A DNA stretch of 64,000 bases, from the NCBI GenBank assembly GCA_045655905.1, contig JAZOQF010000193.1, positions 1,102 to 65,101 on the forward strand, in the 5' to 3' direction. The stretch comes from Acutalibacteraceae bacterium. Its GTDB lineage: Bacteria; Bacillota; Clostridia; Oscillospirales; Acutalibacteraceae. Below the pieces are notes generated by a model, which ran no database searches, had not been told where the DNA came from, and saw nothing but the letters and a program-made list of their open reading frames with translations. The position numbers and the translations under genes are program-made. Positions 16,517 to 63,298 of this stretch are shown in pieces (within the stretch, counting starts at the first letter, position 1; every line of letters begins with the position of its first letter).

Positions 16517-16540
16517 TTTAAATTGAGAGGTATAATATAA

Positions 16541-17554: not shown

Positions 17555-17567
17555 TTGATTTAAAATT

Positions 17568-17593: not shown

Positions 17594-17616
17594 CCCAAAA
17601 CACAAGGAGAAAATAA

Positions 17617-19843: not shown

Positions 19844-19857
19844 GAGGTAAACAATAA

Positions 19858-21446: not shown

Positions 21447-21452
21447 TGAACC

Positions 21453-23713: not shown

Positions 23714-23715
23714 AA

Positions 23716-30569: not shown

Positions 30570-30571
30570 GT

Positions 30572-34344: not shown

Positions 34345-34346
34345 TT

Positions 34347-39373: not shown

Positions 39374-39408
39374 CGTAAAACTACCTCACATTCTTTTATA
39401 CTATAATA

Positions 39409-39437
39409 ATTATAACGCATTTTTCGTTAAAATGCAA
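39409..39437 (-). promoter_or_regulatory. possible promoter for polymerase gene
   Basis: Minus strand TTGCAT-17 bp-TATAAT. Confidence 0.4.
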
Positions 39438-44186: not shown

Positions 44187-44190
44187 TTGT

Positions 44191-44550
44191 TCACACCAAC
44201 TGATTTAAATCAATTGCCTTTCTGCTTGTTTTTGAATTTTCAGAGGGCTTATATTTTATAACTTTTGCTTGCCCTTGATTCGCAGCTCTCTTTTGAGCTT
44301 CTCGCGCCTTTCGTTCTTGTTCGAAATAGCGGCGAGCCTCGTCAATAACGAAGGGGACTATGCCGATGCCATATTTTAAGTCAACGGTTTTGCCCTGAAT
44401 GTCTGTAAAATAACACAAAGCACGAGCAATGTCTTTATAACTATACCCGTGCTCTGTTACATATTTGTTAATTTGCCGCAGGATCATATCATTACATTTA
44501 TTAATGTTAAATAAATCACAAATAAAAGTAACAAGTTCCTGTTTTGTCAT
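44191..44550 (-). CDS. hypothetical protein, possible replisome organizer/helicase loader (119 aa)
   Basis: Track ORF. The function call is from position upstream of dnaB only. Confidence 0.55.
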   Translation of the reverse strand: MTKQELVTFICDLFNINKCNDMILRQINKYVTEHGYSYKDIARALCYFTDIQGKTVDLKYGIGIVPFVIDEARRYFEQERKAREAQKRAANQGQAKVIKYKPSENSKTSRKAIDLNQLV

Positions 44551-44556
44551 ACAATA

Positions 44557-45546
44557 TTATACCAGTAGATCACTCAAAGAAGTGAAGGCAACCTGCAATT
44601 TTTCAAGTGTTGCCGCGGACTCCGTTAAAGCGGAAAGCCGCTCGCCCTTAAAGATGTTAAATAAAATTGTGTTAACTTCGTTTTCTTTGCCTCGTTCAGT
44701 TGCTTGGACGGCTGTGTCAATAGTCTTTTGCAGAAGAACCGCAAAATCTTCTTTACCTTGTTCATAAAGATTTACAGGCACAATCGCATCAGGCATCTGT
44801 CTTCCTTCTTCCTCATACTGTCTCTGAATTGCAACTGCAAATTCATGCTGCAGATTTTCATATGTAAACTCGAAACGAGGAGACAAAAACTTACTTCTGG
44901 TTTTAGTGTCAATGTCCACAAGGTTAGAATAAGCATAAACAGTGGGGGTTCCGTCCGCGTCACCGTCGCGTGGTTCCTTATGTAAGAAAAGACAGAAGTC
45001 AGACAGACCCTTAATAATGAGGTCAGGTCGTTTATCGATGTCCATTTTTACAACCGTGGTTTTTTGCTTTGTAACTTTGTCTTCGCGCTCAACTTCATCA
45101 CTATGGGCAATAAGAATTAATCCATATCCCATCTGCGGAATTGCGCGGACAGTGTCTTCAAATTCAAGACGAATCTTTTTCCAGCCCATACCAAATGCAC
45201 CGGCTTGACCAGGTTCGTCAACGCCCATCTGGGTTAACATATACTTGTAGCAAAGTTGATAAAGTTCGCCGACAGTATCAATTGCGATAATATCAAAACG
45301 ATCTTTGTTCTTTTGCATACCAAGCTGTTTTACCGCAGACTTGAAGTCGGACCAGCTCTGAATGAGAATTGGCATAGCACCATTGATAAGTTTAAAACCT
45401 GCTTCACAAGCAAGAAGAAGGTGTCGAGGGAAAGAACAGGCGACAGAAGTTTTTCTTGTCGCCATCTCTCCGTAAAATAACCAAGTTTTGTCAGACAAAT
45501 TAGGAGTTACAACATTAGGTTGCACATTATCTAAATTTACTGCCAT
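44557..45546 (-). CDS. RecA-fold ATPase, Sak4-like recombination protein (329 aa)
   Basis: Track ORF with degenerate Walker A YGEMATRKTS and Walker B IIAIDTVGE. Confidence 0.5.
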   Translation of the reverse strand: MAVNLDNVQPNVVTPNLSDKTWLFYGEMATRKTSVACSFPRHLLLACEAGFKLINGAMPILIQSWSDFKSAVKQLGMQKNKDRFDIIAIDTVGELYQLCYKYMLTQMGVDEPGQAGAFGMGWKKIRLEFEDTVRAIPQMGYGLILIAHSDEVEREDKVTKQKTTVVKMDIDKRPDLIIKGLSDFCLFLHKEPRDGDADGTPTVYAYSNLVDIDTKTRSKFLSPRFEFTYENLQHEFAVAIQRQYEEEGRQMPDAIVPVNLYEQGKEDFAVLLQKTIDTAVQATERGKENEVNTILFNIFKGERLSALTESAATLEKLQVAFTSLSDLLV

Positions 45547-45562
45547 AACCAGTTACCTCAAA

Positions 45563-46435
45563 TTAAATCAAAGAGCTTCTACGAGTAATTGCGCCCATTG
45601 CGGCAGCAGCAGGAGAAGCAGGAGCTGCGGGAGCAGAGCTTTCCTTTGCGGCAGCCAGACGAGCTGCATCGGCGTCCTTATAAGCCTGAATGAAGCGAGT
45701 GATTACTTCCTCGGAGTAGCAGTTGGGAGAATCTACATCATAAGGCTCATTACCGCCCTTAATGCGATATACCTTTTCTACAGAAGTATAAGTCTTAGAA
45801 ACAGGGTTACCAAATGCAACTTCTTCAGTCTTGGTTACAGAACGACTGGTATACTGGATTTCACCATTGAAACATACACTTGCGCCAGGCAGGTAATGTG
45901 CCTCAATTGCGGAAGCGATATTCAGGTCGTCCTTGTCAATGTCAAAGCGAACAATCTGAATAGCGGTATCGTTGTAGTTAGCCTGTGCAACTTCAATACG
46001 GTATCCAATAACATTGCCTTCACGGTCGGTGCGCTCATAAATGGGCTTAACGACGAAGCCGTTAAACTCAAAAGTGATTGCATCTACTGCATCGGCTCTC
46101 GCGGCGCTAACGAACTTAGCGTAAACTTCATTAAACTTTCTAATGGTGCCTTCCTGAGTTACCATAGAACCCTCACGAAGCTCAGCGGTTACGCGAACAC
46201 GCTTATTCAGGTATGCCTCGAGAGTAGAGAAAGTCTGATATGCCTTGCTGACGGAACCATCCTTGGTGAGCTCAAAAGCAAGAACCTTGAGGTCAATAAG
46301 GTTTTCTACGCCATTACTTACAGACTTTACAACAAGTTTGCCGTTGATATACTTTCTACCATCGGCGGTCTGGCGGATAGAGGTATCCACTTCAACAACT
46401 GTACCCACCACAAATACTTTATTAATCTTTTCCAT
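45563..46435 (-). CDS. putative ssDNA-binding protein (290 aa)
   Basis: Track ORF next to the recombinase, with GC3-rich high-expression-type codon usage. The OB-fold assignment is a guess. The antisense ORF 45488-46459 is rejected. Confidence 0.4.
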   Translation of the reverse strand: MEKINKVFVVGTVVEVDTSIRQTADGRKYINGKLVVKSVSNGVENLIDLKVLAFELTKDGSVSKAYQTFSTLEAYLNKRVRVTAELREGSMVTQEGTIRKFNEVYAKFVSAARADAVDAITFEFNGFVVKPIYERTDREGNVIGYRIEVAQANYNDTAIQIVRFDIDKDDLNIASAIEAHYLPGASVCFNGEIQYTSRSVTKTEEVAFGNPVSKTYTSVEKVYRIKGGNEPYDVDSPNCYSEEVITRFIQAYKDADAARLAAAKESSAPAAPASPAAAAMGAITRRSSLI

Positions 46436-46536
46436 TTTAATTCTCCAATCTGTTATTAATATTTTAATCTGTGTTCTTTATCGTTAGTTTGTTTAATTTA
46501 TTAACTATTTTAATAAAGTATCAAAATATTTAAGCA

Positions 46537-46565
46537 GGGGATGTTACAGCCCAAATAACATCCCC
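46537..46565 (-). terminator. hairpin terminator
   Basis: GGGGATGTTA-9 nt-TAACATCCCC. Confidence 0.55.
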
Positions 46566-46602
46566 ACTTTTAATTATTTAAACTTCTAAGTGTTAGAACG
46601 AA

Positions 46603-46887
46603 TTACGCACCGAAAGCGCGGCCAGCGTCAGTCAGGTGGTAAGTAGTGTAGGGCTTAGTGCCAGTCTTACCAGCCTTGTCGGTGTAAGCAGCCTCGCGAG
46701 AGCCCTTAGCAACGAGCTCATTCTTAACGAGGGAGTTCATAACACCATGAATACCCTTGGGATTGAGACCCAGAGCTGCAGCGATATCTGCACCGAAGTA
46801 ACCCTCGTCACCGCAATCGTTTGCTCTCATCCACTGAAGTACTGCCTCACAGTTCTCTGTAAGCTTAATTTCTACCATTTCTGCCAT
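46603..46887 (-). CDS. small winged-helix-like DNA-binding protein (94 aa)
   Basis: Track ORF with GC-rich biased codons, AAGGAGAAA RBS, a long leader and its own promoter 46982-47010. Confidence 0.5.
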   Translation of the reverse strand: MAEMVEIKLTENCEAVLQWMRANDCGDEGYFGADIAAALGLNPKGIHGVMNSLVKNELVAKGSREAAYTDKAGKTGTKPYTTYHLTDAGRAFGA

Positions 46888-46981
46888 TTTTAAATTTCTC
46901 CTTGTAATTAAAAGTTTTTGTTTGTTTTTTTATTTTTTAGTTCAGAGAAGAGTGGGCTTTTCTCTCCCTTTTACTATATAT

Positions 46982-47010
46982 AGTATATCACAATTTTCGC
47001 TCTAAATCAA
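46982..47010 (-). promoter_or_regulatory. sigma70/sigmaA-type promoter
   Basis: Minus strand TTGATT-17 bp-TGaTATACT. Confidence 0.55.
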
Positions 47011-47044
47011 TTTTTTAGAAGCTATATCTCAAACTTGACTTTTC

Positions 47045-49303
47045 TCAAATCGAGATTATTTTCGCGGATTCGGAGTTCGCAATTTTGGCTCCGACCGCGG
47101 TTTTGCCTTTTAGGGCAAGGGTCTTTTTACTGCACCTTGTAATTTTTGCATCGTCAATCAAATAATAGAGTTCATCTACCTTTGCAATTAAGGTTGTTTT
47201 TTCCGCAATTACCTGACCCTTTCCGCCTTTCGCAGTTAAATGAAATTCGGAGATAGGTGTTCTTTTTCCCTTACCTTCCGCAATACACACAACTTCTTCT
47301 GTATCATGCCCAATTGCGGCAGATACAACAACATCAGCCATTCCCTTAATTCCAACAGTAGTTCTACCTGTTGCGCTAATACTTGAAACTGCAAGTTTAA
47401 GAACTCCACCACCAGCACCAAGCAAGAGTAAGTTATCATGCTCTGCCGCGCATCCGCACCAAAGCAGTTCGTCTCCTTCTTTAATCTTGACTGCCGCACC
47501 AGATCGTCTCGACTTCGTATACTCCGAAATTGCGGTCTTTTTGATTATTCCGTTTTTGCTAACAGTTATCAAGTAATCTTTTTCAAGTGTAGGAAGAACT
47601 TGTACAAGCTCTTTCGCCGCGATTTCGTTTTCCATTCCAACGCCTAACTCGGCACAATTTACTAAATACATTCGGCCACTCTTGTCAAAAGCATAAACGA
47701 TTGAGGTGTCCTTTGCCATAAAACCAAATTTAACCTTTTGTTTTGTAATTACGGCATTTTTCTTATTCAATACAATTTTATCTTCTGGAATTAGTGGCAA
47801 AATACTATCATTATCAAGTACCAAGTAAAGAAGTGTTGCAGAAGATTTTTCTGTCTCTTCTTCATTTCGCTCAACTTCTTCTTGGACTTTTGTTCTACGA
47901 GGGTCGCCAAACTTTTTCGCAGTTTCTTGCCACCCTGCAATTAGACAACCATTAAAAAGTTCTGGAGTTTCAAGAATTTCTGTAATGCGGGCAATTTCAG
48001 CCTCAAGTTTTTCTTTTTCAGATACTAATTTATTAACTTCGAGTTTTGCCAAACGAGCCAATTTAATATCTAAAATGGCTTTTGCTTGAACTCCATCAAG
48101 AACAAAATTCTCAATCAAGTTCTTTATCGCTTCTGCATTATTGCTGGAATGTTTAATGACCGTAACAACTTCATCAATATTTGCCAAGGCTATCAAAAGG
48201 CCATTAACAATATGGACACGATCTTGGGCTTTTGCTTTGTCAAACTCAAACCCTTTTCTATAAACAATTTTTTCATGGTCAATATGCGCCTATAAAGCCT
48301 GTTTCCAAGTAAAGACTTTCGGGAATCTGCCATCCTCAAGCATTGTCATATTAATGGAATAGAAAGATTGTAGGGAAGTGTTTTTGTATAAAAAATCTAA
48401 AACACGATTATAATTAATTCCCTTTTTTAAATAAATTTCAATTAAAGGTGTTCCTTTAGTCAAATCTTTATATATATCAATTCCGGGGTTTTCATCTCCA
48501 TTTACAATGTTATCAAGCTCACGACAAATGGTATCTGTATAAACTCCATATGGAATTTCAGTTACAATAAGACAGTTTTCTTTTTCAGAGTAAGTAATAA
48601 CCGATCTTAACTTGCACGCTTTGCCCTGGCCGTTCTTAAGACTTTCTCTTACCTCTGCAGGATTAAGAAGAAGGCCACCGGTCGCAAAGTCTGGCATTAT
48701 AATAAGCTCTTCATCCGCGATTTCTGGATTTTGCAAAAGACGAATAAGTGAACTATTCAATTCTTTAATGTTAAATTGAGGAATTGAAGAAGATAAACCA
48801 ATACCAATACCAAAGCCACCATTACAAATATTGTAAAATCCCTTTGACGGCAACACCGCGGGATATTGTTCAGTATCGTCATAGTTATCTCTCCATTCTT
48901 CAATTGTGTTCTTCTTCATATCTGCAAACAAATAATTTGCGACAGAAGAAAGACGAGAAGAGGTGTAACGAGGAGCAGACCAGTTACCACTTTCCATCAA
49001 GTTGCCATAAGAACCTTCAATTTCAACGAGAGGATATCTCATAACAAAAGGCTGTCCGGCTCTCATGATAACGCCCACACAAGAACTGTCTCCATGGATA
49101 TAAAGACGCATTGCAGAACCGACAGATTTAAGAGTTTTCTTAAAAGGCTTGTTTTCTGTAAAACCATCGGTTTCCATACAATAAAAAATTTGACGTGCGG
49201 AGGGTTTTAAGCAGTCTCTTACATCAGCTAATGCTCTACTCTGCAGAACTGCACCAGCATATTGTGAGAAACTTTCTTCAATTATTGGTTTTAATTCTGC
49301 CAT
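47045..49303 (-). CDS. type IIA topoisomerase subunit A (GyrA/ParC-like, 752 aa)
   Basis: Track ORFs 48290-49303 and 47045-48196 share a frame and are joined through TAG 48290. Motifs LKPSARQIFYCM, the catalytic-Tyr region SAPRYTSSRL and NGLLIALANIDEVV. Confidence 0.85.
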
Positions 49304-49306
49304 TTA

Positions 49307-51166
49307 TTACTCCTTTATCATACTAAAATCTATATTTTCAAAAATGAATTTGCGGCGTTTTTCCGCATCTTCACCCATTAATTCTTCTAAAAGTGTTAAA
49401 CCTTCGACATCTGGTGTTAGAACTTCAAGTCTTTGGTATTGCGGTGTGAACATTGAAATGTGGGCCTGGTCTGCGGAAAGAGAACCTAATCCCTTATTGC
49501 GCTGGACTTCACCTACCACTTTACCTCTCGCGGCATCCATTTCTTCATCGGTAAAGAAATAAGATTCTTTTTTTCCGTTCTTTACAATATACAGAGGAGA
49601 TCTCAACCAACACAATCTCCCTTCTTTAATAAATTGGGGCGCGAGCTTGTACAATGCAGCCATGATAAGCAAACCTATGTGACTACCATCACTATCGGCG
49701 TCAGTACATATTGCGACTTTACCATATCTTAATTTACTACTACTGTAATTACCAGGGGTGATGTTCAATGCACTTAACAGCAACTTGATCTCTTCATTGT
49801 CAAAAATATCTTCTTCACTGTTTGCAAGACAATTTATCATTTTTCCTTTCAAACCGAGAATACCATATTTCTCAACATCTCTTGCAACGGCCATTGAACT
49901 CGCTGCACTTTTACCCTCTACCAAAAGCAAAATGCTATCTTGACCAAGAAATTTTGCATCTTTAAGTTTGTCGCTCGCAAACACTTTCTTGCGCTGATTG
50001 ATTTCAACTTCTTTGGTTGCTTCCATAACCTTTTTGCGCGCGTTTTCTGCCGCTGCTTCGGCTTTTACAACCTTGTTCAAAATTTCAACCACTCTTGCAA
50101 AATCCGCAGGGTTTTTCGCCGCGAATTCCTTCAATGCGTTGGTGATTGCTGTTGAAGTCGCGGTTCGAGCCTCGGGGTTTGCCAAAGCGGTCTTTGCTTG
50201 GTTAGAGAACTGACCAACCCTAACTTTAACAGAAACAAAGCCATCAAGAACATCTCTAATCTGCTCACCAGTGAACTTGCCACCGCTTAAATTATTAAAT
50301 GCTTTTGTTAGAGAAGTCCTAAAGCCTGTAATAAAAGCACCACCATCGGGCATAAACAAGCCATTTGCATAACCCCTAATATCACCTTTTTTCTGCACCC
50401 ACTGCAAAGCCAACTCAACTTTACAATCAGGTGTTTCATAAAAATATGAAAAAGGTTTAGATATGGGCTGCGGGTGTTCAAGACCGTCAACCAAACCGTT
50501 TTTACACAAGAAAATTTCTTCAGTTCCATCAACATCCAATACAATCTTCAGTCCAATGGTAAAATAAGAAATTTCTGTGAGCATTCTGCGAAGTGCGGCC
50601 ACATCAATAAAGACATCGCCATAAACCGCAGGGTCGGGCTGATATACAATGTATGTGCCGGTTGCGGGAGTGCCAGGAAATTCTTGCACTTCACTTAACG
50701 GATGTGCGCCTTCATCATTACTCTCAAATTGCTGACGATAAATCTTACCATCACGATGTACTTCTACTTTTAACCATTTGGCGGTATGACAAACTACCTT
50801 ATTTCCTTCTCCGTTAATACCAATTGCGCTTGAATATGCACCTTCTGTATGTTTGCCACCAGAATGGGGGATGAGAAACGCCGCGGTTAACGAGTTAATT
50901 CCATCTTGTCGAATGCCGACGGGAATGCCTCGCATATTATCTTCTACGCTAATTATGCGGTTAATCGTATCAAGACGAATTTTCAAGAAAGGATTTCTTG
51001 GTTTATATATTTCATATTCATCTTGCACATTTACAATCAATTCACGCAGACCAAGGTTAATTGCTTCCTGTCTGTCCGCGCTAAGATACATACCGATCTT
51101 CTCTCGGAACGCGCGGCCAGCAGATAAACTTACTATTTGCTCTGCTCCATAATTTGTTGTTGACAT
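49307..51166 (-). CDS. type IIA topoisomerase subunit B (GyrB/ParE-like, 619 aa)
   Basis: Track ORF with an ATPase N-box ELIVNVQDE, TOPRIM LLVEGKSAASS and CTDADSDGSHI. Confidence 0.85.
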   Translation of the reverse strand: MSTTNYGAEQIVSLSAGRAFREKIGMYLSADRQEAINLGLRELIVNVQDEYEIYKPRNPFLKIRLDTINRIISVEDNMRGIPVGIRQDGINSLTAAFLIPHSGGKHTEGAYSSAIGINGEGNKVVCHTAKWLKVEVHRDGKIYRQQFESNDEGAHPLSEVQEFPGTPATGTYIVYQPDPAVYGDVFIDVAALRRMLTEISYFTIGLKIVLDVDGTEEIFLCKNGLVDGLEHPQPISKPFSYFYETPDCKVELALQWVQKKGDIRGYANGLFMPDGGAFITGFRTSLTKAFNNLSGGKFTGEQIRDVLDGFVSVKVRVGQFSNQAKTALANPEARTATSTAITNALKEFAAKNPADFARVVEILNKVVKAEAAAENARKKVMEATKEVEINQRKKVFASDKLKDAKFLGQDSILLLVEGKSAASSMAVARDVEKYGILGLKGKMINCLANSEEDIFDNEEIKLLLSALNITPGNYSSSKLRYGKVAICTDADSDGSHIGLLIMAALYKLAPQFIKEGRLCWLRSPLYIVKNGKKESYFFTDEEMDAARGKVVGEVQRNKGLGSLSADQAHISMFTPQYQRLEVLTPDVEGLTLLEELMGEDAEKRRKFIFENIDFSMIKE

Positions 51167-51168
51167 TT

Positions 51169-52161
51169 TTATGCCTCCGTACGAATTCTTACGAGTCGAG
51201 GATGTCGCAAGCTGCCATCACTTGTAATTTCCATACAAGAAACAACAGCAACAAGTTCGCCATTTTCTAACATCTGTTGAGCTTCTTCTGTCGCAAGCCA
51301 TTCTCGGTCTGCATCACTCAATCCGCTTGTGACTCTTACTTTTGTGTTGCCATTGAGGACTACGACACCATTTTTCCAGCCAAAATAATAAGGCTTTGTC
51401 ACCGCGACTTCGTCTTTCCAGTATTTCCAACTGTCATGTTCTGTGCCAGTATAAAGTTTGGTAGGCTCAATTAAGTCTACAATAGGCAATTCTAATTCCT
51501 TTGTGATTTTCTTAACCTTGAGAGTTTTCCACGCAGTGCGTTTACCTGGCTCATATTTGGCGTCACAGCGATGAATTACAATTCCTTCACCGCCTCTTGC
51601 AAGAATGTCCTGCAAAAATTCTTCAAATTCAATGAGCTGCCAATTGGTTAAACTAATGTATGTAAAACTTCTTGTGCTTATCAAACCAAAAGCCTCTTCA
51701 AGTCTGGTCACATATCCATAAGAACACAGGTCTTTTCCGCTTACACATAGACAATCAAAAACCTTAAAAACAAGTTTCTTTGTCGCCTGTCTTGCTACGG
51801 CTTTTGCTGGTAAACATCTCAAAATGGAACCAACATCTTTACTTGTCGCAGTTACGTCTTCAAAACAAAGCTCACCCAACAGTACAGTCCCAACTGGGAG
51901 GTTTCTTGCCTCTTCAATAATGTGGGGGATGTGCAATGTTTTATCGCCATATTCACCAGTTACCTTACTAATAGTGCGACTTTGCGCGATAATGCCTTCC
52001 TCGCCTACGATTAGCCGGCACCATTCTCCATCGAACTTTTGAGTAGCAATATAGTCATGATCACGATTTTCAATCATATTTCGCGCATTTGGTAAATCAT
52101 AATTCTGTGGCTGATAATACTTCTGCGGCACCATTGTAGAATAATGTTCAAAAAAGTCCAT
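51169..52161 (-). CDS. ATP-dependent DNA ligase (330 aa)
   Basis: Track ORF with the adenylation motif TQKFDGEW (KxDG). Confidence 0.8.
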   Translation of the reverse strand: MDFFEHYSTMVPQKYYQPQNYDLPNARNMIENRDHDYIATQKFDGEWCRLIVGEEGIIAQSRTISKVTGEYGDKTLHIPHIIEEARNLPVGTVLLGELCFEDVTATSKDVGSILRCLPAKAVARQATKKLVFKVFDCLCVSGKDLCSYGYVTRLEEAFGLISTRSFTYISLTNWQLIEFEEFLQDILARGGEGIVIHRCDAKYEPGKRTAWKTLKVKKITKELELPIVDLIEPTKLYTGTEHDSWKYWKDEVAVTKPYYFGWKNGVVVLNGNTKVRVTSGLSDADREWLATEEAQQMLENGELVAVVSCMEITSDGSLRHPRLVRIRTEA

Positions 52162-52209
52162 TTAGTCCTCCTATATGTTAAAATTTTTCTTTCCTTATTC
52201 TCTATTATT

Positions 52210-52238
52210 ATTATATCAAAAATCGCGGAAAAAGTCAA
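52210..52238 (-). promoter_or_regulatory. sigma70/sigmaA-type promoter
   Basis: Minus strand TTGACT-17 bp-TGaTATAAT upstream of the ligase gene. Confidence 0.7.
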
Positions 52239-52259
52239 ATTTTAAGCCGAAATTAAGGC

Positions 52260-52430
52260 TCAAATAGACTTTTCCGCGTCTTCCATAATTTTATTTATTT
52301 TTTGTTCTATGGAGTCAAGTCGTTGCAAAATTTCTGCAAGCGTTTCTTGTGTTGTATTGTGTTCTTCGATATTTAATGTTTTGCCTTCAAGCTATAAAAG
52401 AAAAGACAGAACGGTTAAAATATCAAGCAC
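52260..52430 (-). CDS. possible small coiled-coil protein (56 aa)
   Basis: GTG start is uncertain. In-frame TAG at 52392. Sequence ...LEGKTLNIEEHNTTQETLAEILQRLDSIEQKINKIMEDAEKSI with a TGA stop. Confidence 0.3.
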
Positions 52431-52450
52431 TTCAATACTATTATTTATAT

Positions 52451-53704
52451 TCAAAACAGTTTTCCTCCGCTTTGCTCTATCTTGTTTGTGGCAGAAAAAT
52501 AAAGCAAAACATCGAAATCAATTAAACAAAGTTGATTTTTCGCGCGAGTAATGGCAACATATGCAATATTACGCTCTTCAGTTGAAGTAATAGGAAAATC
52601 CACAAGCACAACATTGTCATATTCAAGACCTTTTGCTTGATGCACTGTGCTTACATTGACAATATTCATAGACTGAAGTTTTTTAACTTGCTTGTTGCTA
52701 CGGCACAAAATTTGTGTTTTAGGGTCTTCAAGCAGTCTGCGAATTAGAAGCGTGTCATTATAGTGTCGACCATCAACTAAACTTTCGCATTCACCCATTT
52801 CCGCAATTCGATAAATTTGTGCGCCGCTACCTCGTTCACACTCTATATCACAATAGTCCCAAGAGTCAATATCAAGAGTTGAAAATTTACGGTTATTTCC
52901 CGCAATTTCGTAGGTTGCCATCTTTCTAAATTCTTCTGCAAAATCTAAAATTTCTTGGTAACTTCTGTAATTTGTGGTTAACTTAAAAGCATCAAAATCA
53001 TCTAATTTTTCAATTACTTCTTCAAGAGAACCTCTGAATTGGTAAATACTTTGATTAGGGTCTGCAATATAGAACTTTTTAGAGGCTTCGACAAGATTAA
53101 AAACATCATATTGCACAGGGTCGATGTCCTAAAATTCGTCAACAAACAATGCTTGAGTGTCTGTAATTGTTAAACCAAATTCTTCAAGTTTGTCAAGCAA
53201 GTATTTTGGCAAATCGGTAAAATCATAAAGCTGATTACGGGCTTTAAATTTTACATAGTCATGTCGGATAAGCTCAAAAGTGCGCTTAATTTTTTCGTCA
53301 ACATCAACATTATAGTTGCCCATAACAAAACTAAACAAAAGATACTGATTTAAATAATATTGTTTACGATTGTTACAAAGCCGCTTCAAAATTTCTTTAA
53401 TTATGTCTTCTTCAAGCAACTGAACTTTAAACCCATATTGTGCGCTCATTTCCCGCAATTTCGAGAAAGCCCAAGAATGGATTGTGCTAATGCTAATGCC
53501 CATAATTTTAATACGAGATTGTAATTCTGCGGTGGCTTTCTTTGTAAAAGTAATTGCGGTAATATGATGCGTGGGATGCTCATGATGATATTTTTCTATC
53601 GCACCAACAAGTGTCGCAGTTTTACCCGCGCCTGGCGGAGCAATAACCAGCATTTTTTCGCTTTCCGCATCAATTACTTTTTGTTGTGAGGTATTATACA
53701 GCAT
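52451..53704 (-). CDS. UvrD/PcrA-like superfamily 1 helicase (417 aa)
   Basis: Track ORFs 53129-53704 and 52451-53116 share a frame. Walker A APPGAGKT. Motif II reads VDEF-TAG-DIDP, so TAG sits at the conserved Q of DEFQD. YQFRGS is present downstream. Confidence 0.8.
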
Positions 53705-54167
53705 CTTCGCGCTCCTTCAATCCAAGAGTTTCAAGAAAAACTTGAAGATGATGAACAGAGGGAAAAGTATAAATTGCTTCTTCTGGAGAGTACCATCTAA
53801 CTTGCTCGTCAAAATCTTTGAAAACTTCTCTTGCCTTTCGAAGATAATCGTCAAAAACATCAGTATTACCATAGGCAGGAGCCACTGCAAGAATCATGTC
53901 AAATTTCATATTGGAACGCTTGTCAAGGTTGCCGTAAATAATATTATTGGTTTTATCTTTAAACCATTTTTTAGGGCCTTTTGTAGTTCTAAAAGCCTGA
54001 GACAATAGGATATTTGCGGCAGGATAAGGCAATTCATTCTGTTCTTCAAACATAAGAGCCATTTCCTATATAGAAAAGACCTCTGTATCGTCATAGCGGC
54101 CGTGAAGCCCCTGCGCAATATCGAGTATCTGCATTGGGTGTATTGATGTTAAAACTAAAATGTTCAT
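53694..54167 (-). CDS. hypothetical protein (157 aa)
   Basis: ATG 54167 overlaps the RNase H stop (ATGA) and is in frame with track ORF 53694-54062 through TAG 54066. Confidence 0.5.
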
Positions 54168-54616
54168 TTGTCTCCTTCTTTTTCCAGAGCTTTGCGGGCT
54201 TTTACCGCAGTTTTGTCTGCTAAATTGTTATATTCATCGTCTTTATGCGCTTGTGCTTTTAATATTGTTACTTGTAATTGTTCGTATAGTGATAGCATTT
54301 CTTCCCAAAGGTCTTTGTTTTTAACCGGTTCGCCTGACATATTTTTCCATCCGTTGCGACGCCAGCGCGCATACCATTTTGCATCGAAGCAGTTGAAAAC
54401 ATATGCGCTGTCTGTATAGATAGTATGAGGAGATGCGGGAAAAGAGGCTAAATGTCGAAGCGCATTAACCACTGCCAGCATCTCCATGCGATTTCCAGTT
54501 GTGTTACGCTCTGCCCCTGATAAGATTGTAGGGGGAGAGTCGTTGTTTATGATTATGGTAGCCCATCCTCCAATTTGGGACTTGGAGGAGTGGGCGCCGT
54601 CAGTGTAAATTATCAT
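54164..54616 (-). CDS. rnhA: ribonuclease HI (150 aa)
   Basis: Track ORF with motifs IYTDGA, GNRMEMLAV, IYTDSAYV and the WRRNGWKN..G.PVKNKDLW region. Confidence 0.8.
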   Translation of the reverse strand: MIIYTDGAHSSKSQIGGWATIIINNDSPPTILSGAERNTTGNRMEMLAVVNALRHLASFPASPHTIYTDSAYVFNCFDAKWYARWRRNGWKNMSGEPVKNKDLWEEMLSLYEQLQVTILKAQAHKDDEYNNLADKTAVKARKALEKEGDK

Positions 54617-56754
54617 GAAGAGAGGGGATACAAAGAGCCAGTTTTCTCGATATCACCATCGGAATTTCGTCTAACAATTTGTATACATATATTTCCATTT
54701 TCTGCTGTTACAAAAGAAAGCTCGTAAGACTTACCGCCTTTGTCAGAAAAAAACAAAGACTTTAATCCATTTGTTTTATTACCTATAGAAAGTAAATTTG
54801 GCGCAGATGGAACTATATTATGATATAAAATTTTATTGTTTTCGTCCTCTTCTGTACCTATTTTCCACCCCACATGAGAATAGGCGTCATCAAATCCTAA
54901 TCCTGTAACGATTACAGAAGGACTCAATGCAAGTAAGCTTGTTTCGCCGATTGTTTGTTCCCCTACAAAAAGAGAGGGGGCGTTTTTTATTACTTTTTTA
55001 GTTAATTCAGTGTAGGCGCTGGTTAATGTTTTTGGCCATTTAAAAACAATTTTTCCTTTTATTGTTATTGTTACGGTACTGTTACCTACTAATACTATAT
55101 CTTTTATTTCTGTTTCTGAAGCTGGGGCATTGAAGATATTAGAAAAAGCAGTATTCATATTGCCAATTCTAGTTTCTGCAGTATATTTAACAGAAGTATT
55201 GTCACTCTATCCCCTGTCAATATTTTTTATTTTTATCTTTTTTTGTTTTTCTTTTCCTAAAGTTTCTGAGGTTTTTGTGTCTGTGTTTATATCATATTCA
55301 ACGTCATATTGTAGGAAATAACATCCATATTTTTTATAATAGGTTTCTAATCTCCCATCATAGGTAGCTGGTTCAGTAATTAATAAATCAAAATCCTAAC
55401 CAAGAATGGTAGACACATTTATATAATTACTGTATCCTCTGAATGTTTTAGGAGGGGTAATTTCTAAAGATAAACCATTCTCTTTATTGGTTGTAATGGT
55501 AAAATTGTCCTCACCATTTTTTACTTCCTCGCCATTTACTTTTGTTAATTCCCAGACTCTCGAACCAACAATTATAGAAGAAAATACTGAAAAAGGACCT
55601 GGCAGCAATAGCCCTGGACCATAATAGACTATACCAGATTCATAAATAAGTTCAAATTCTGCAATTTCTTCATCCGGTAATTCTATGGTTTGATTGTCCG
55701 ATACAGAGAAGTCATCTAGTCTAGAAGAAATCATACCAGCATGCAATTCAGAGAACGGAGATTCCTTTTCCCCAAGAGCAACACGCTCTCCATCAATTGG
55801 AAAAATACCGTTTTCGGATAGCTCTAGATTTGCAGGCTCTATATATTTTGCCTATAGCGTTGCATCAACCTCAAAACCGCTGTATGAAATTGAAAAATCA
55901 AAATTACAATCATTTTCTGTAGTGCCAGGCCCCTTTATACTAGCTTCGACTGTAAAATACACTTCATCAGCTGAAGAACCTTCATATCTTCTATTGCGTG
56001 TTATAATTTGTACATTCATGGCTACACCGCCATCGTTATATTGATATAACGTTACTGTATTGGCGGCGGTTTCGCAATTGACAAAAATGTCATCTTCTAA
56101 TTCGCAAGCTAAACTGAGGTACCCGCTGGTACCATTTGTATTTGCTTTAAAATTCTTAATACAGAGCATGCCGTCACTAAAATTGGAAATATCAAAGGTT
56201 TTTGACCATCGATATAAATTTTCTATCTAGTCGTCTTTTGTGCGAGGCACTGAAATATTAAAATGCCTTTCTATTTGATCAGGCCTAGTAGTAAAAGTTA
56301 ATGCTTCTGATAGGTCATTAAAGAACATTCCACCACCGCTTTTAGATTCTATATTTATTTTATCTTTGACTTCGGCGCCCGCTATTGCATCAAAAATAAT
56401 TTTTTGAGACGTGTCTTCAGGTTTTGTGCCTGTAGCTGTAATACACGCATTACCAGACTCATCATGGTGCATTTTTAAAACGCCCATGCTGTTTTTCATC
56501 ACAATGCAAGGCAATTTTTCGTCACCTACAACACCCATTTTTACAAAAGACGGAGAATTGTCACTCTAGGTTAATGTAAGTTCTTTTGGTGTTAATTCTG
56601 CCTTGGGGCCGTTGTTTGAAGTTAATGTAATTTGCTCCGGTGCCAGTTCTGTTTTAGGAGGTTCTGTACTATTTTCTTGTGTATCTGCAGTTACTAAAAC
56701 TTTTTTTGTTTTTAAACTTGGCGCCTGAGCATCGCTATAAATTTCTAATGCCAT
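54613..56754 (-). CDS. large hypothetical beta-rich protein (713 aa) with 5 in-frame TAG
   Basis: Five same-frame track ORFs (56566-56775, 56227-56538, 55852-56169, 55396-55746, 54613-55158) are joined through TAG at 56566, 56227, 55852, 55396 and 55207. I translated the gaps by hand. ATGA overlap with rnhA. Confidence 0.6.
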
Positions 56755-56758
56755 TTTA

Positions 56759-57193
56759 TTACCCCACAAGTTCAACTCTATGCCACTTATTCATAACACT
56801 CATTCCAAAACAATTCACAATTGTCTTATAGTTCACGAGCCTCATTAGATTAGCATAAGTCAAACAAAAATTTTTATTTTGACACGACATTCTAAATTCT
56901 TCATGTCGCGGTTCATCCATAATTAAAATATCAATTAAGCATCTTGCCGCAATTAGCTGCAGTTGCAAAAACAGTTCGCCGTCCTTTACAAAATCTGGCA
57001 ATATACACTCAAAAACAGTATTTTCCCGCAATTTCGCAACATCTATTGTTTCAAATGCCTATTCAATTTTGCTATAGTAGTGTTCATAATGTTCCAGATC
57101 GTCATCATCCAATGGAACAATAATCTGCACCACTTCACATTTTTTAAGTGGCCGTTTTACCACCACATTTTTTTCAAAATTAAACAATTTCAT
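56759..57193 (-). CDS. hypothetical protein (144 aa)
   Basis: ATG 57193 with a GGAGAA RBS, TAG at 57059, then the frame of track ORF 56759-57031. Confidence 0.45.
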
Positions 57194-57740
57194 TCTAACT
57201 ATTCTCCAATTCGTTTAAGAAACAAAAAGCGTACAAAGTTCCCCACACATCTGCATAAGCATTATGTTCATTAAAAAGAATATAGCCACCTTCTTTAGCC
57301 ACATCCCTTAACTTGAGGTCCTTTTTACGCTTTAAAAGTTTGCGTGCATTGTTGTAGGTACAATAGCGATGCACAAATTGATCAAAACAAAAACCGTTTT
57401 CACACAGTAAATTTATATCATCGTCAACACCGTGGCTAACAATTAAACAATCTTGTGGATCGATATCGAATATGACCTCTTCCATCAATGCCTTCGCTCC
57501 GGACTGATCAATTCCATTGTCGCAAAGGTAATCATTGTTGATATTTGTGTAATTGCGAAAGAAGCTATTTAGCGCGCGATCAGGTCGTAAATATATGTTA
57601 ATGCTTCTTGTTAATTCATAAATACCTGGTTCTACTTGGCTGAGAATGAGAAAGGCGGTTTGAACCAACAGGCTTTGGTCATACTCGATATCAAAGAAAA
57701 CAATGTTTCTTTGTTCTATGTTTTGTAATTGTATTTTCAA
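57180..57740 (-). CDS. DEDDh-type 3'-5' exonuclease (186 aa)
   Basis: TTG start after an AAGGAAG RBS. Motifs FFDIEYD, SHGVDDDINLL and HNAYADV. TAG 57195 is followed by 4 codons and TAA 57180. Confidence 0.6.
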
Positions 57741-57770
57741 GATATTGTTTCTTCCTTATTTACTGTAATT

Positions 57771-57799
57771 ATTATATCACGGTTTTTGTTAAAAGTCAA
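57771..57799 (-). promoter_or_regulatory. sigma70/sigmaA-type promoter
   Basis: Minus strand TTGACT-17 bp-TGaTATAAT. Confidence 0.7.
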
Positions 57800-57941
57800 A
57801 TTTGTGAAAGTTTATAAGGAAAATTGCAGAAGGTTTATGTTTTGGGAAGGATTAAGTCTCTCCTTATTTTTTCGATGGCCTCTTTACGAATTTTCTCTCT
57901 GGTCTCTTTTAACCACTCTTTGAAATTGGTTACTTTGATTC

Positions 57942-58592
57942 TCATATTTCAACACCCTCTAATTCATAAATATCTACAAAACATTCTTTTGGTAACGTGT
58001 AGGTGCCATCTACATTTTGTTTAATATAAACTATTATAGCCGGTGTCATTATACCTGGAAGATAATTATCATTTTGACAATATAATGGCACAACACGGAA
58101 CTCTTCGCTACTCGAGCTAAAATATGTTACGTAATGAGTACCTGTGTAGTTTCCATCAGTGCCATTATACACGTCCCCCGTAAATAAGTAGTACGATTCC
58201 CATACTACAAAGATATCTACGTCAATATCGTCACCTTCTGCCATATAGGGGACATCATCCGGCGTGCCAAGCACAACTTTTAGGATGCGACGGGTATCTT
58301 CTGCTTCCCACAGTTCTATACCATCACCGTAATTCGAAAATTCATGCGCGCGATAAATATTACCGTTTATGTCAATTTCATCGCCTTCATAAAGCTCACA
58401 ATAATCTATTAAATTTATACGCTTAAAAAGCTTCCATCCGGCAGAAGAAGAAGTTTTACCCTCTTCAACGCCAGCGGCATAAACTTCATCAACCCCCGCC
58501 GCAATTCCGTCGAGTGTTAAAGGTTCTTCTCCACCAGTTTTTGCTCTAATCGCGTCAGCAATAGCTGTCATTTTTTCATTAAAAGTTGCCAT
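57942..58592 (-). CDS. tail fibre / receptor-binding-like protein (216 aa)
   Basis: ATG 58592 (TAATG overlap) with AGGAGG RBS. The N-terminal MTAIADAIRAKTGGEEPLTL motif is one I recall from fibre-type proteins of gut phages. Confidence 0.5.
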   Translation of the reverse strand: MATFNEKMTAIADAIRAKTGGEEPLTLDGIAAGVDEVYAAGVEEGKTSSSAGWKLFKRINLIDYCELYEGDEIDINGNIYRAHEFSNYGDGIELWEAEDTRRILKVVLGTPDDVPYMAEGDDIDVDIFVVWESYYLFTGDVYNGTDGNYTGTHYVTYFSSSSEEFRVVPLYCQNDNYLPGIMTPAIIVYIKQNVDGTYTLPKECFVDIYELEGVEI

Positions 58593-59635
58593 TACCAAGA
58601 GCCTCCTAAAATTTCTTCTTCAATCGTAATTTTAAGTGCGGCAAGAGCGTCATCAACATATTGTTTAGTAGTAGCATGTTCGCTTTTAGTGGGGGTGCCA
58701 ACAACTAAGATCCCCTTGTCTCCTCTCTCTGCTATACTCCAAGATGATGCCTATGCGAACGCTATGGGCTGCATCTTTTGTTTGCCACCCTCGATGATAT
58801 AGGCTTTTGTGCCCGACTCGGTGGATTTATTAAGTTTGCCGTCAAGAGGAATCTTGATTATTGCGAGAGGCTATTCTTGTTCTGATGTATAGAGCGCCAA
58901 AACATTTGCCTCGCTATCAAACTCCAAACGCAAGCCGTAAATCATTCCAGTAGCATAACCAAGCGCCTCACCAATACTGTTCCAAACACCACCAGACTGC
59001 ACAAGATTTGAGCTGCCCTCTGTGGGCAGAACATCAGCATTAGCAACAAGATTTTCTACATACTGACTTGCAAATTCCTCTGCAACTTGAGGAACCCAAC
59101 TATAAACTCCACCAGAGCTGATTAGTCGCAAACTGCCTTCAGTCGGAATTTCGTCAACGGGAATGTTCTTAATTTGTTCAAGAACATATTTTTCCAATGT
59201 AGCGGTCTGCTCACTGATCTGGGTCTCTAAAGCCGCAATTTCGTCATCAGTGTAAACTTTTAGTTCAGCAACTTTTTCATCAACATACCCCTTTGTTGCA
59301 TTAGGATCAGCAGGACGACGAGGATGACCAATAGTGCCCTCTCTTATAATAGACGTGAAAACTGGGATCTCTGTCGCAGTAGTAGAAATTTCATCTCCCG
59401 CAATAACACCAACAAGTAATTGCGTGCCATTTTTCACATAAGGAATCGCGGCTTTTCCGTCTTTAATTTCCTCGTCCCAATAATATTTATTCCAAACAAA
59501 ACGAGCATACAAGGGTAAAGAAGACCAGTCTTCGTCAAAAACAAAAGAAAGAACATAATCCTCATTTTCAGCGACAATTCCCTGTCCCTCGTAAGATGCT
59601 ATCCTGTTATTAATTTTTACTTGTAATTCTGGCAT
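58592..59635 (-). CDS. tail fibre-like protein (347 aa)
   Basis: Track ORF 58871-59635 extends through TAG 58871 and 58751 to TAA 58592. Contains a coiled coil and a repeated PTEGS..L(V/I)SSGGV motif. Confidence 0.5.
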
Positions 59636-59661
59636 TGTTATAATACCTCATATTTATTTTT

Positions 59662-59684
59662 GGAGAGGAGTTTGACTCCTCTCC
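59662..59684. other. 10-bp GC hairpin between fibre genes
   Basis: GGAGAGGAGT-TTG-ACTCCTCTCC. T-runs flank it on the plus strand only, so it is not a canonical terminator for the minus-strand genes. Confidence 0.5.
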
Positions 59685-59693
59685 TTTTATTAA

Positions 59694-59942
59694 TTATAAA
59701 TAGTAGCGAATTCTTTCTGGTATATTTTTTATGGCCTCAGGATTAAGCGACTTGATTTCAGAAAACCACTCCATAATTTCGGGGTCGTCTACTTCTCTGC
59801 CGCGCGTGACTGCCTTTTCCCAAATATCAAATGCGGCAAGAAGAGGTTTTCTCAATTGTCGAAGAGCGTCTTGTTCCGCAGATGTTCCTTTTAATAATTC
59901 GATACTATTGCTATCAATTGGCTTTCTTTTTATAATTCTCAT
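59694..59942 (-). CDS. small protein, possible fibre assembly chaperone (82 aa)
   Basis: Track ORF with an ATGA overlap to the upstream fibre gene. The function call is from position only. Confidence 0.5.
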   Translation of the reverse strand: MRIIKRKPIDSNSIELLKGTSAEQDALRQLRKPLLAAFDIWEKAVTRGREVDDPEIMEWFSEIKSLNPEAIKNIPERIRYYL

Positions 59943-62900
59943 AGACTCTCTCCATTAGTAAAATATGTCTAAGTGATTGTTATCTATGGACCACCTGTTG
60001 TTGTACCATCTTTTGATATTGTACTTTCTGTTCCGTTTGGCCATACTGTATAAGAATTTGTCATTGTTATTTTTTCTCTGTCGCCGTTACTGCGATAAAT
60101 AGTTTGGTTTAAAAGATCAACATATTCCTGACTACCTAACTTAATTGAGGTCTCTGGCGCCATTACCGACTCCTCAGAGCCATTAAACGATCTAATACCA
60201 TAGAAAGTAATTTCACTATTGCCATTGTTCTCAATACGACTTACTAATGTCTTACTGCCACTAACAACATTGTCGGGTGTTACCCACTCAGAAACATCGC
60301 TACTCTCAAAAGTAGTTTCTAAAATTTGTGCCTGCCATGGAAGCGTTTTTAAAAAGTCCACTTTACTCGTTAAAGTTTCAAGGTCTGAAACAATAACAGG
60401 AATTTTGTCTTCTATAAGCTGTATTCTTAATTCTTGCTCTTCAATTAAAATCTATAAATCTTCTAAAGATGCAAAAGAATAATAAGTTTGTCGGACGGTC
60501 AATGTGGGCGCGCCGACTTCGTAAGAGGGGATTATTTCCTCTTTTCCATTTTCATCTTCTATTAACAAATAAGAATTGCTGTTAGTGCTGTATATGGTTT
60601 CAGTAGGTGAGCCTGCAGTTTTTCCATAAAGAACTAATGCAAGAGCGTTCCAATTTGCTTTCCAATCGTCGAGCGTGGTGTACTTTGAATTTCTAACATA
60701 AAAGTTGTAGTCGCTATATCCTCTTACCATGTAGAAAGTTTTATCTTCACTTAATGTCTCGTCATATTTATATTCAGAAAGCATAAAGTTTGCTGAATAA
60801 GGACTCCCCACCTAAAAGAGTTTATCAATATAAAGCGAAAAGGAGACTACGCCACTTTCTATTTGTGTTGTTGTTTTCAGTTTGTCAGCACTAATTTTAC
60901 TTGGAAGACTAGTGCCTTTGAAATAATCATATAAAGTAACAACGTTTGGAGAAGAGAAAATTAAATACGACCACCTGGGAATTTCTATACCTTCGTCATG
61001 ACCTAAAATTTCTACTTTATTTTCCCTAGCGCTGTTTCCATTAGAATCTGTGCATCTCACACTTTTAAAACGCGCATGCTGGGGGCCTTCGCTCTCGTCA
61101 AAGACTGTATCACCATCAATTCTTAATACGCGGGTAGTAGGAAGAACGCTTTCGGGAAGTTCACCGTACCCCGTTGGAATATTTATACCTGTTGTGGAAG
61201 AAGTGAAAGTTCTTGTGGCTTCATATTCAGATAAGCCACCGGTATAGTGCAAATCAAGAATTAATTTATTAATATCATCAATTCTATTTTCTAACTCTTG
61301 TACTTCCTCGCTTGAGGCTCCTGAGCCGCCACCGCCTCCTTGGCCAATATTCTTAACTTCGCTAATTACCTTGCCATTGGCAGTAAGTTTTAATGTTTTT
61401 GTTGCACTGTCATATGACATTGCGTCTGCTTTTTCTTTATCTAAAACATCAATGTCACTTCCTATTTCGTCAAGGGCAGAAGATAAACCAGCTATTGCAT
61501 CGATTGAATGCTAATTGGGATCATATCTTCCTCTAAGTTCACTATGTTCTGTAATACTTACAACATTATCAACATATTTTTTTACTCCGCCAGAGGTTAT
61601 AAGATATTCGCTATCGTCTCTGGGTTCGTCATCTATTTTTGCTAAAAAATAGGATTGATATATAGCGATGCTACTATTAGCACCACGCCAACCAAAAGCT
61701 GTTTCTTTTCCGCCATGAAATACTGTATATGTAAACTTATTGTCGTCAGTATAGGAAGCACTACCGGTATTACCACCAAAATCATATGCTATTCTATCTG
61801 TCTCAAAAGTGATTACTCCAGGACCAGTTAATTTAGCTATACCTTGTGGGATAAGAAGTTTGCTTTTAACATTTCCGTCAGCATCTGTGCTTTCAATATA
61901 AGACAAACTTGCTCCTGCAGCAACTCTTATTTCATAAACAGTTGTTAATGTACCGTCGACTACATAAGCACCATTTGCTGTCTCTCTTGTGGTAAAAAAT
62001 GAGTCGCGGCGGCTTGACATCTCTTCCTCGGTTTCTCCACGAGAAAAAATTTCAGGGACACCTTCCAAGTTATTTGTAACTACTTCTTGAATTTGTGCTG
62101 TCGCGGCTTTTAAGTATTCCTGCACTGCACCAACAGTAGGGACAGTAGTTTTAGACTCTTCTTGTCCGTCCATGGACATACTTTCGGCAATTTCAAATTT
62201 GTAATATCTGATGACTTTTGCAGCAATGTTGTCAGTGTCCATGCCACTTGCCGGAGATACCTAAATTCTGTAGCCATCATCAGTTTTGATTACTTCGTAT
62301 TCTAAATAAATTTCTTCATAAGAAGTGTCGTCCCCTTTTACAAAAAATACACTTATTTCTTCATTTGGATCTGCTGTTATACTCTTTGCCCAGGGGCTAT
62401 TTTGATGCTTCGTAAAGTCAGACAACGGAAAAGAATTCAACGTAGCATAACAATAAGAAGAAGGTATATTAAAAATTGTCTGTCTCGGAGCCAATCTTGA
62501 AGGAGTTTTTGTAAAAGTAATTGTACTATTCCATAAGTCTTGCTCAGTTGGCAAATAATAACCACCGGCACTATCTCTAAACAATGTAAAAGTAGGAATT
62601 CCGGCATCAGCATTTTTTACAAAAATTTCATCTTCATGCGGCGCAAGTTGCTAAGGCTCATCATAATAAGCAATTTCTCCAGATTTTTCAATAACTTTGC
62701 CATAGCTATAAAATCCAGTGTTATTGGGGATATTTTCATAAATGCTTGTGCCAAGATTGTCACGATCAAAAATAATATACAAGGGAAGGACGGCAGTTTT
62801 ATCAATTGTTTCCCCTATTCCATAAGTATCTATTACATAAGCAAATATGGAACCGCTAGCACCAGATAAAACTATTTTGACTTGATGCAGATTCTCTCTG

Positions 62901-63298
62901 TCGGGGTCTCCTTCATAAAACCAGCTTTCAAAATTTTGACAAGCTCCGGCTTCTTCTTCTCTTGCCTTATTGTAAAAATAATTTTTAGGCTTAAAAGCGT
63001 ATGCTTTTTCCACTATAGGAACAAGCTCACCGCCGTTATCCACTTTTACAACTTCAATTAAGTCGCCTGTATAAAAACCACTATATTTTCCGTAAGGATG
63101 AACGAACGCATATTCGCCATATTCTTTACTAAACTGAATATAGCCATGCTGTAATAAATCTCTGCTAATTCTTTCCGAGTCTTTTCTGACCTGCGCAACT
63201 TCGCGGTCAATAATCCGCATATTCGCGTTAATTGTGCTGCCCCAGTTTGTGGAGCCTTGCGAGGGCAAACCAAGTTTCAAATTCTTTGTCTGAGCCAT
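59939..63298 (-). CDS. large tail fibre protein (1119 aa) with 7 in-frame TAG
   Basis: Six same-frame track ORFs are joined through TAG at 62651, 62261, 61511, 60812, 60452, 59984 and 59969. The true stop is TGA 59939. Fibre-type N-terminus MAQTKNLKLGLPSQGSTNWGSTINANMRIID, plus Gly-rich and coiled-coil segments. Confidence 0.65.

Follow-up and report, generated by a model that had tools for sequence, protein, structure and literature searches.

The 64,000-nucleotide (nt) stretch of DNA analysed here, hereafter the window (contig JAZOQF010000193.1, from an assembly labelled Acutalibacteraceae bacterium), covers about two thirds of a large tailed phage genome. With a probability of roughly 0.9, this phage uses genetic code 15, in which TAG is a sense codon for glutamine (Gln, Q), while TAA and TGA are kept as stop codons. 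The codon at the centre of this reading is the TAG at window positions 53129-53131, inside the gene of a UvrD-like helicase; under code 15, it is the ordinary glutamine of helicase motif II, written in a recoded codon. The gene and the codon are located as follows.

52451..53704, minus strand: UvrD/Rep/PcrA-like superfamily 1 helicase, 417 codons, 1 TAG (Pfam and PDB matches)
53129..53131, minus strand: motif II TAG, at the Gln position of DEFQD (homologue alignment, PDB GajB, DNA of related loci)

The plus-strand CTA at 53129-53131 is a TAG on the minus strand, in frame within the open reading frame (ORF) 52451-53704, where the product reads ...TQALFVDEF[TAG]DIDPVQYDVFN.... The protein matches the Pfam families UvrD-helicase (1.2e-30) and UvrD_C (5e-18), as well as AAA_19, and phmmer searches of the PDB return GajB, Rep, UvrD and PcrA at 1e-19 to 1e-12, together with RecB. 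Its translation contains the Walker A motif APPGAGKT, the interrupted box DEF[TAG]D, and the motifs ADPNQSIYQFRG, VHQAKGLEYD, and YVAITRAK. These family profiles, plus Walker A, motif II, motif III (QSIYxFRG), and motif VI, place it in superfamily 1A with UvrD, Rep and PcrA, as a short form of 417 amino acids, similar in size to GajB. The first-pass annotation, made from the sequence alone, had assigned the TAG to the invariant Gln of the DEFQD box, and this assignment is confirmed. A large protein collection gave 937 homologues, of which the best 119 (43-60% identity) were aligned with MAFFT; the TAG column is Q in all 119, and the adjoining V, D, E and D columns are invariant as well. Likewise, in the displayed phmmer alignments to GajB from the PDB, the TAG stands opposite the Q of FIDEYQDSD. 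At the DNA level, the seven related loci all have CAA or CAG at this site (7/7).

Which residue is inserted at TAG was addressed with 91 related loci from IMG/VR and metagenomes, to which all window proteins, with TAG written as X, were aligned by tblastn. An empirical substitution table was derived from about 10,000 ordinary sites of the same alignments, and 26 TAG columns were then scored under the 20 candidate amino acids. A tally of this kind over conserved-domain positions had been named in the first-pass annotation as the check on its proposal that TAG encodes Gln, and its result supports that proposal: Gln ranks first, and no rival residue dominates the TAG-aligned columns. Relative to Q, the empirical likelihood places glutamate (Glu, E) at -7.8 nats, lysine (Lys, K) at -10.1, serine (Ser, S) at -11.0, and alanine (A) at -11.7, with tyrosine (Tyr, Y), leucine (Leu, L) and tryptophan (Trp, W) outside the eight top-ranked candidates. 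When a flank identity of at least 0.4 is required (19 sites), Glu falls to -10.2 nats. The mean Q fraction of the 26 columns is 0.218, versus 0.036 over all sites, a 6-fold enrichment that none of 20,000 random site sets reached. This value lies inside the 95% range of site sets in which the true residue is Q (0.172-0.425), and exceeds the maximum reached by any set of sites whose true residue is E, K, S, Y, L or W; as expected of code 15, Gln is the residue favoured at the TAG-aligned columns. A raw, unweighted tally against distant relatives gave a mixture of A, Q, K and E, which was settled by this calibration on sites of known residue. The reverse comparison points to the same residue, since the window amino acid most often found opposite in-frame TAGs of the relatives is Q (11 of 37). 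For the 40 TAG sites of one recoded relative (IMG/VR contig 3300045988_176179), Q again ranks first, followed by K at -6.2 and E at -7.4 nats.

Apart from the helicase, the TAGs that bear most directly on the identity of the residue are found in the following genes.

47045..49303, minus strand: homologue of the A subunit of DNA gyrase/topoisomerase IV (GyrA), 752 codons, 1 TAG (Pfam DNA_topoisoIV 1.6e-100; PDB GyrA 1.8e-86)
48290..48292, minus strand: the GyrA TAG, codon 338, in KQAL[TAG]AHIDHEK (aligned to phage relatives)
32918..33625, minus strand: RuvC-like Holliday junction resolvase, 235 codons, 3 TAGs (PHROG 827/159)
39831..41585, minus strand: RecJ-like DHH exonuclease, 1 TAG at 41178-41180 (Pfam DHH and RecJ_OB)
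11232..13016, plus strand: terminase large subunit, YonF-like, 4 TAGs (tblastn to phage terminases)
13027..14553, plus strand: portal protein, 5 TAGs (PHROG 2739 portal; alignment of 96 homologues)

The strongly conserved TAG sites are all Q, namely helicase motif II, two sites of the RuvC-like resolvase, and GyrA. The three TAGs of the resolvase lie at 33203-33205, 33197-33199, and 33023-33025 on the minus strand, and the first two flank a CAG exactly as had been proposed (ATT TAG CAG TAG AAT, within FEDI-TAG-CAG-TAG-NN). Both of their columns are Q in six of six relatives, where EDIQLQKN or EDIQYQNN stands against EDI-TAG-Q-TAG-NN. For GyrA, the statement that the bacterial protein has E or Q at this position holds in part: the codon 338 column of the phage relatives is indeed Q (42 of 60) or E (9 of 60), whereas the best PDB match, the GyrA of Staphylococcus aureus, has V there (KEALVHYLEHQK). 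At the RecJ site, the closest relative, L086, has Q; a reading of this site as a histidine column was rejected, because H is confined to distant relatives with poorly aligned flanks. The four closest relatives have Q at terminase sites 242 and 498 as well as at portal site 385, and in the alignment of 96 portal homologues the column of site 385 holds 52 Q and 26 E, with sites 37 and 124 falling in variable columns.

The same codon recurs throughout the window, with 70 in-frame TAGs across 43 genes (17,065 codons), all of which terminate in TAA (30 genes) or TGA (13 genes). Once TAG is taken as sense, coverage by long ORFs (at least 150 codons) rises from 68% to 90%, and at 37 TAG sites tblastn homology to relatives extends over at least 20 residues on each side. 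Codons of the Gln type, TAG included, amount to 653 of the 17,065 (3.8%), and TAG represents 10.7% of these. There is no in-frame TGA within the window genes, TGA being the stop of 13 of them, and code 4, in which TGA is read as Trp, does not describe the window. The picture is instead that of code 15, with intact, homology-supported genes that contain many TAGs and still end at TAA or TGA. Pseudogenes or sequencing errors would not give interruptions confined to a single stop type. Moreover, two contigs from ENA (L180, ERZ28633374; L181, ERZ27297437), whose overlap with the window is limited to the TAG-poor capsid block, are 95-98% identical to it in nucleotides over 15.9-20.9 kb and retain the TAG at 18179-18181; this level of identity indicates that the same phage species is present in other samples. 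TAG is necessarily read through in this phage, and Gln is the residue that fits.

These data also bear on the explanation in which TAG is still a stop, so that the window would represent a decaying prophage, an assembly with sequencing errors, or genes completed by rare, leaky read-through by near-cognate tRNAs of the host. Such an explanation would agree with the splitting of the helicase, terminase, portal, tape measure and other genes under the standard code, and with the lack of a suppressor tRNA in the window. It can hardly be credited, however, when all 70 interruptions are TAG and none is TAA or TGA, when frame and homology run on over 37 sites, when one TAG is kept in two contigs of 95-98% identity, and when TAGs fall on Gln columns far more often than by chance. 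Natural read-through occurs, by our own estimate, at the level of about 1% per codon, and at such a rate translation could not get to the end of the tape measure gene, with its 15 TAGs.

Several observations weigh against the assignment of TAG to Gln. Many of the TAG sites fall in variable columns, and Gln leads Glu by a wide though not an absolute margin. The protein collection calls genes across in-frame TAG, and some of the Qs of the homologues could be TAG-derived, a problem that leaves the DNA-level tally and the PDB matches unaffected. At two of the portal TAG sites, 31 (window 13117-13119) and 206 (window 13642-13644), the majority residue of the 96 homologues is Glu (64/96 and 52/96, respectively); these two columns provide the chief signal against Gln as the sole residue, and can be explained by the common and conservative exchange of E to Q. 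Regarding the decoding machinery, no tRNA was found in the window by ARAGORN or by Rfam, either at the gathering threshold or at E values up to 1, and no release factor or aminoacyl-tRNA synthetase was found in Pfam and PHROG scans of the window proteins, so the machinery is one that we infer from relatives. Finally, the CUA-anticodon tRNA, or tRNA(CUA), of the closest recoded relative, described below, is atypical, and its amino-acid identity cannot be read from its sequence.

The only serious rival residue is Glu, either alone or in a mixture with Gln, which could arise if a non-discriminating glutamyl-tRNA synthetase (GluRS) charged the suppressor and the subsequent amidation by GatCAB were incomplete. 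Glu is the second-ranked candidate by empirical likelihood, E holds the majority at portal sites 31 and 206, E occurs at three to four of 14 sites in the four closest relatives, and a single base change converts GAG into TAG. Nevertheless, we regard this possibility as very unlikely: Q is ahead of E by 7.8-10.2 nats; the conserved sites are Q (119/119 in the helicase, the two RuvC-like sites, and 42 Q versus 9 E in GyrA); and sets of true E sites peak at a Q fraction of 0.196, below the 0.218 of the TAG sites. In particular, Glu cannot explain the columns in which Q is invariant.

The window is not a complete genome, the public contig measuring 66,029 bp, against 97-120 kb in the relatives. 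A suppressor tRNA was detected in only about 40% of TAG-recoded genomes (Borges et al., 10.1101/2021.08.26.457843). Among the relatives, a tRNA(CUA) is present in L082 and in contig 3300045988_176179; the window itself belongs to a partial genome and has no tRNA. The latter contig (103.3 kb) is the closest TAG-recoded relative and is syntenic with window 10.2-52.2 kb. It bears an array of 12 tRNA genes (L177 8366-12134; Leu three times, Ser, Gln-UUG, Gly, Ile, Met twice, Thr, Asn, and Pro) and, about 3.3 kb beyond this array, the tRNA(CUA) (L177 15425-15514, at about 17.9 kb of the contig). Both lie in sequence with no counterpart in the window, and from this position of the array, the window probably lacks about 30 kb of its phage genome, with whatever tRNA genes it has.

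The two tRNA(CUA) genes differ in form. That of L082, a TAG-recoded relative (7647-7721, minus strand), is a canonical tRNA of 75 nt, with an A1.C72 mismatch, G73, and an encoded CCA, and its bases 7-40, from the D arm to the anticodon, are 91% identical to a CUA tRNA annotated as tRNA-Gln in the crAss-like phages cr53_1 and cr60_1. A degenerate pattern for Gln-like tRNA(CUA) built from it matches 82 viral contigs of IMG/VR, of which only L082 belongs to this lineage. The tRNA(CUA) of L177, in turn, is 90 nt long and has a long variable arm (UAUUCCCUCUGAAGGGGUUG), a D-loop of 6 nt, a G1.U72 pair, and A73; its positions 10-79 are 91.5% identical to one of the tRNA-Sup-CTA genes of phage phAss-1 (L178 3992-4079), which has the same variable arm. 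An amber suppressor with the shape of a class II tRNA is unexpected in phages that otherwise look like TAG = Gln. Among the contigs of the genome collection, the core of this long-variable-arm tRNA(CUA) has an exact match only in L179 (JAZQXF010000002.1, 6.5 kb), which is binned in a metagenome-assembled genome of Candidatus Nanosyncoccus, and is probably a misbinned phage contig, uninformative about the host.

The shape of this tRNA is what gives some weight to the insertion of other residues, such as Tyr, Ser or Leu, as the long variable arm might imply, or else Lys or pyrrolysine. In the same direction, the nearest relative has Y at two of the window's TAG sites, and K comes second in the tally of the nearest recoded relative itself (-6.2 nats). 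In the tally of the window, however, K and S stand at -10.1 and -11.0 nats and Tyr, Leu and Trp are outside the top eight, and sets of true Y, L, S or W sites reach a Q fraction of at most 0.135. In addition, the authors of the phAss-1 study, whose phage has the 91.5%-identical tRNA, infer Gln too (PMC10607447). With regard to pyrrolysine, ARAGORN gives this label to any tRNA with a CUA anticodon, and none of the genes for its synthesis and use (pylS, pylBCD) had a Pfam match among the window proteins scanned. Altogether, insertion of any of these residues seems extremely improbable.

Assuming that TAG is Gln, the decoding could proceed as follows, by analogy with published recoded phages and with the relatives. 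The phage would infect a host with the standard code, in which a phage-encoded amber suppressor tRNA with the anticodon CUA, charged with Gln, would compete with release factor 1 (RF1). The gene of this suppressor is predicted to lie in the approximately 30 kb absent from the window, where the closest recoded relative has its tRNA array including the tRNA(CUA). TAG-rich proteins, such as the tape measure, tail, fibre, terminase and portal proteins, may be completed only after the suppressor appears, and the TAG-poor replication genes could be expressed earlier. A further, unlikely idea is that the amber suppressor of this SPbeta-like lineage is a non-canonical tRNA(CUA) that is shared with the distant phAss-1 group and stands out by its long and conserved variable arm, its small D-loop and the weakness of its 1:72 pair, and that it would receive Gln through an unusual charging route, possibly with part Gln/Glu ambiguity. 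If so, this ambiguity could account for the Glu-majority columns at some of the TAG sites.

Gut phages using code 15 are known from the crAss-like, Lak and 'gemstone' clades (Borges et al., 10.1101/2021.08.26.457843), and Peters et al. 2022 (PMC9523058) report metaproteomic proof of TAG = Gln in crAss-like phages. Like these phages, that of the window has in-frame TAGs at Gln positions, TAA and TGA as stops, and TAG mostly in structural and late genes, and it has relatives that carry a suppressor tRNA(CUA) and close relatives that use other codes. It is not crAss-like, having an SPbeta-like virion module (YonB capsid, YomU tube, and YonF-type terminase) together with a DnaE polymerase; further differences are that its major capsid block is almost free of TAG, and that the 64 kb of the window hold neither a suppressor tRNA nor a release factor. 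Another known system is phAss-1, of the proposed Phassvirus (Babkin et al. 2023, PMC10607447), which NCBI places in the 'Caudoviricetes code 15 clade'. It resembles the present phage in having a large, siphovirus-type gut genome with TAG = Gln in terminase, portal, tape measure and fibre genes; however, its terminase is only about 27% identical to that of the window, which makes it a distant relative from another genus.

The classical laboratory counterpart is the E. coli supE (glnV) suppressor, where a tRNA with a CUA anticodon inserts Gln at UAG in competition with RF1, and where, as known from classical suppressor genetics, a purine-rich context after the TAG favours suppression. In the window, the base 3' of the 70 TAGs is A at 28 sites, G at 26, C at 12, and T at only 4, while T follows CAG at 48 of 225 sites. 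This purine-rich, T-poor context, similar to the one favouring amber suppression in supE strains, fits selection for efficient suppression, being the direction expected for efficient suppression and poor termination by RF1. The difference lies in the dependence on the suppressor: supE, a weak mutation of the host, is tolerated under laboratory conditions, whereas this phage needs read-through for about 26 genes.

The relatives of this phage, which come from gut and rumen metagenomes, do not all use the same code. A scan of metagenome contigs found none closer than about 69% identity in the tape measure protein. Searches for the source contig by exact 50-mers in collections of viral and genome contigs, and by megablast in GenBank phages, had no hits. 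At 40-80% protein identity, in-frame TGAs of the relatives stand opposite a Trp of the window in 49 of 103 cases, and those recoded to TGA = Trp are L002-L015, L019, L023, L025 and L026. An example is the RuvC-like gene of L023, L025 and L026, with K-TGA-QPDF against KWRPDF in the window, at about 33.2 kb. Six others (L016-L018 and L020-L022) have no in-frame stops. Three codes, the standard one, TGA = Trp, and TAG = Gln, coexist within one lineage; mixed codes have been described within four of eight clades (Borges et al., 10.1101/2021.08.26.457843).

The recoding of TAG to Gln is already known, and all the findings fit the published description of code 15 phages. The public protein collection contains, as exact entries, the translations with Q for TAG of the helicase, portal, RuvC-like and GyrA proteins and of two other TAG-bearing proteins. 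Two TAG-free window proteins are exact entries as well, and all eight stem from a single NCBI contig of 66,029 bp, which some annotation pipeline has therefore translated with TAG as Gln before. These translations are annotation rather than evidence, yet the question of novelty is settled by them. The one unusual item lies outside the window, namely the long-variable-arm tRNA(CUA) common to the nearest recoded relative and phAss-1. The value of the case is practical: it opens no new question and adds one more lineage with members using the standard code, TGA = Trp, and TAG = Gln. The standard bacterial code splits about 26 of the 43 genes, including those of the helicase, gyrase A, resolvase, terminase, portal and tape measure, and annotation therefore needs table 15.

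The gene map is that of a tailed phage with its virion and replication genes on opposite strands. On the plus strand, 10.2-32.9 kb encodes the small and large terminase subunits, the portal, a YonB-type capsid protein, a YomU-type tube protein, the tape measure, and distal tail proteins. On the minus strand, 32.9-54.6 kb carries the gene of the RuvC-like resolvase and the replication genes, which include those of a DnaQ-like exonuclease, DnaE (40% identical to YorL of SPbeta), RecJ, primase, DnaB, an AAA_24 protein, GyrA, GyrB, an ATP-dependent ligase, the UvrD-like helicase, and RNase H. The remaining features are listed here with their TAG counts.

16016..20616, plus strand: capsid and tube block, with YonB-type major capsid, YomW, and YomU tube (Pfam labels on the near-identical L180)
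20733..24120, plus strand: virion or tail genes of unknown function, with 2, 6, 3 and 0 TAGs
24134..29272, plus strand: tail tape measure protein, 1712 codons, 15 TAGs, the most TAG-rich gene (Pfam PhageMin_Tail 1.1e-33)
29256..32878, plus strand: two distal-tail or baseplate-like genes, with 2 and 6 TAGs
33805..54616, minus strand: replication module, 5 TAGs in 6645 codons (Pfam and homology)
54613..63298, minus strand: large genes of unknown function and small genes, with 5, 1, 1, 0, 2 and 7 TAGs in order

The large genes of the last block, for which there was no Pfam or PHROG match, are probably tail fibre or receptor-binding genes. The 17 replication genes use TAG for 2.1% of their Gln-type codons and the capsid and tube block for 2.6%, against 17.2% for the other virion, tail and fibre genes (Fisher p = 3.6e-10, replication genes versus the rest). 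TAG is thus enriched in late and structural genes relative to replication genes, as in code 15 phages, with the capsid block as the exception at 2.6%. The same modular pattern is seen in other recoded phages, where translation of the recoded late genes has been proposed to become possible only upon a code switch driven by the phage (Borges et al., 10.1101/2021.08.26.457843). Within the virion genes, the capsid and tube block has a single TAG in its 1501 codons and its neighbours are rich in TAG; the recoded codon is avoided in the virion proteins of highest abundance.

The first part of the window (1-10200) differs from the rest in its GC content, of about 45% versus about 38% elsewhere, and in its short ORFs, mostly on the minus strand. 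Simple repeats and poly(A) runs added to the suspicion about these first 10 kb. An origin from foreign or eukaryotic DNA was considered and rejected, as this part is collinear with the stretch that lies upstream of the terminase gene in L001-L003, and it is probably the early-gene region. Within it, positions 7599-8360 form a low-complexity stretch that is unusual for a phage, the relative L001 having no comparable repeat array at the matching position. This stretch contains (GTGC)x9, (TATCCCTATCC)x17, (CTTGT)n, and (GGAGAGAG)n, together with two poly(A) runs, 31 and 35 nt long; after each of them comes a near-consensus promoter (TTGACAcggg...N...TATAAT) that faces along the plus strand.

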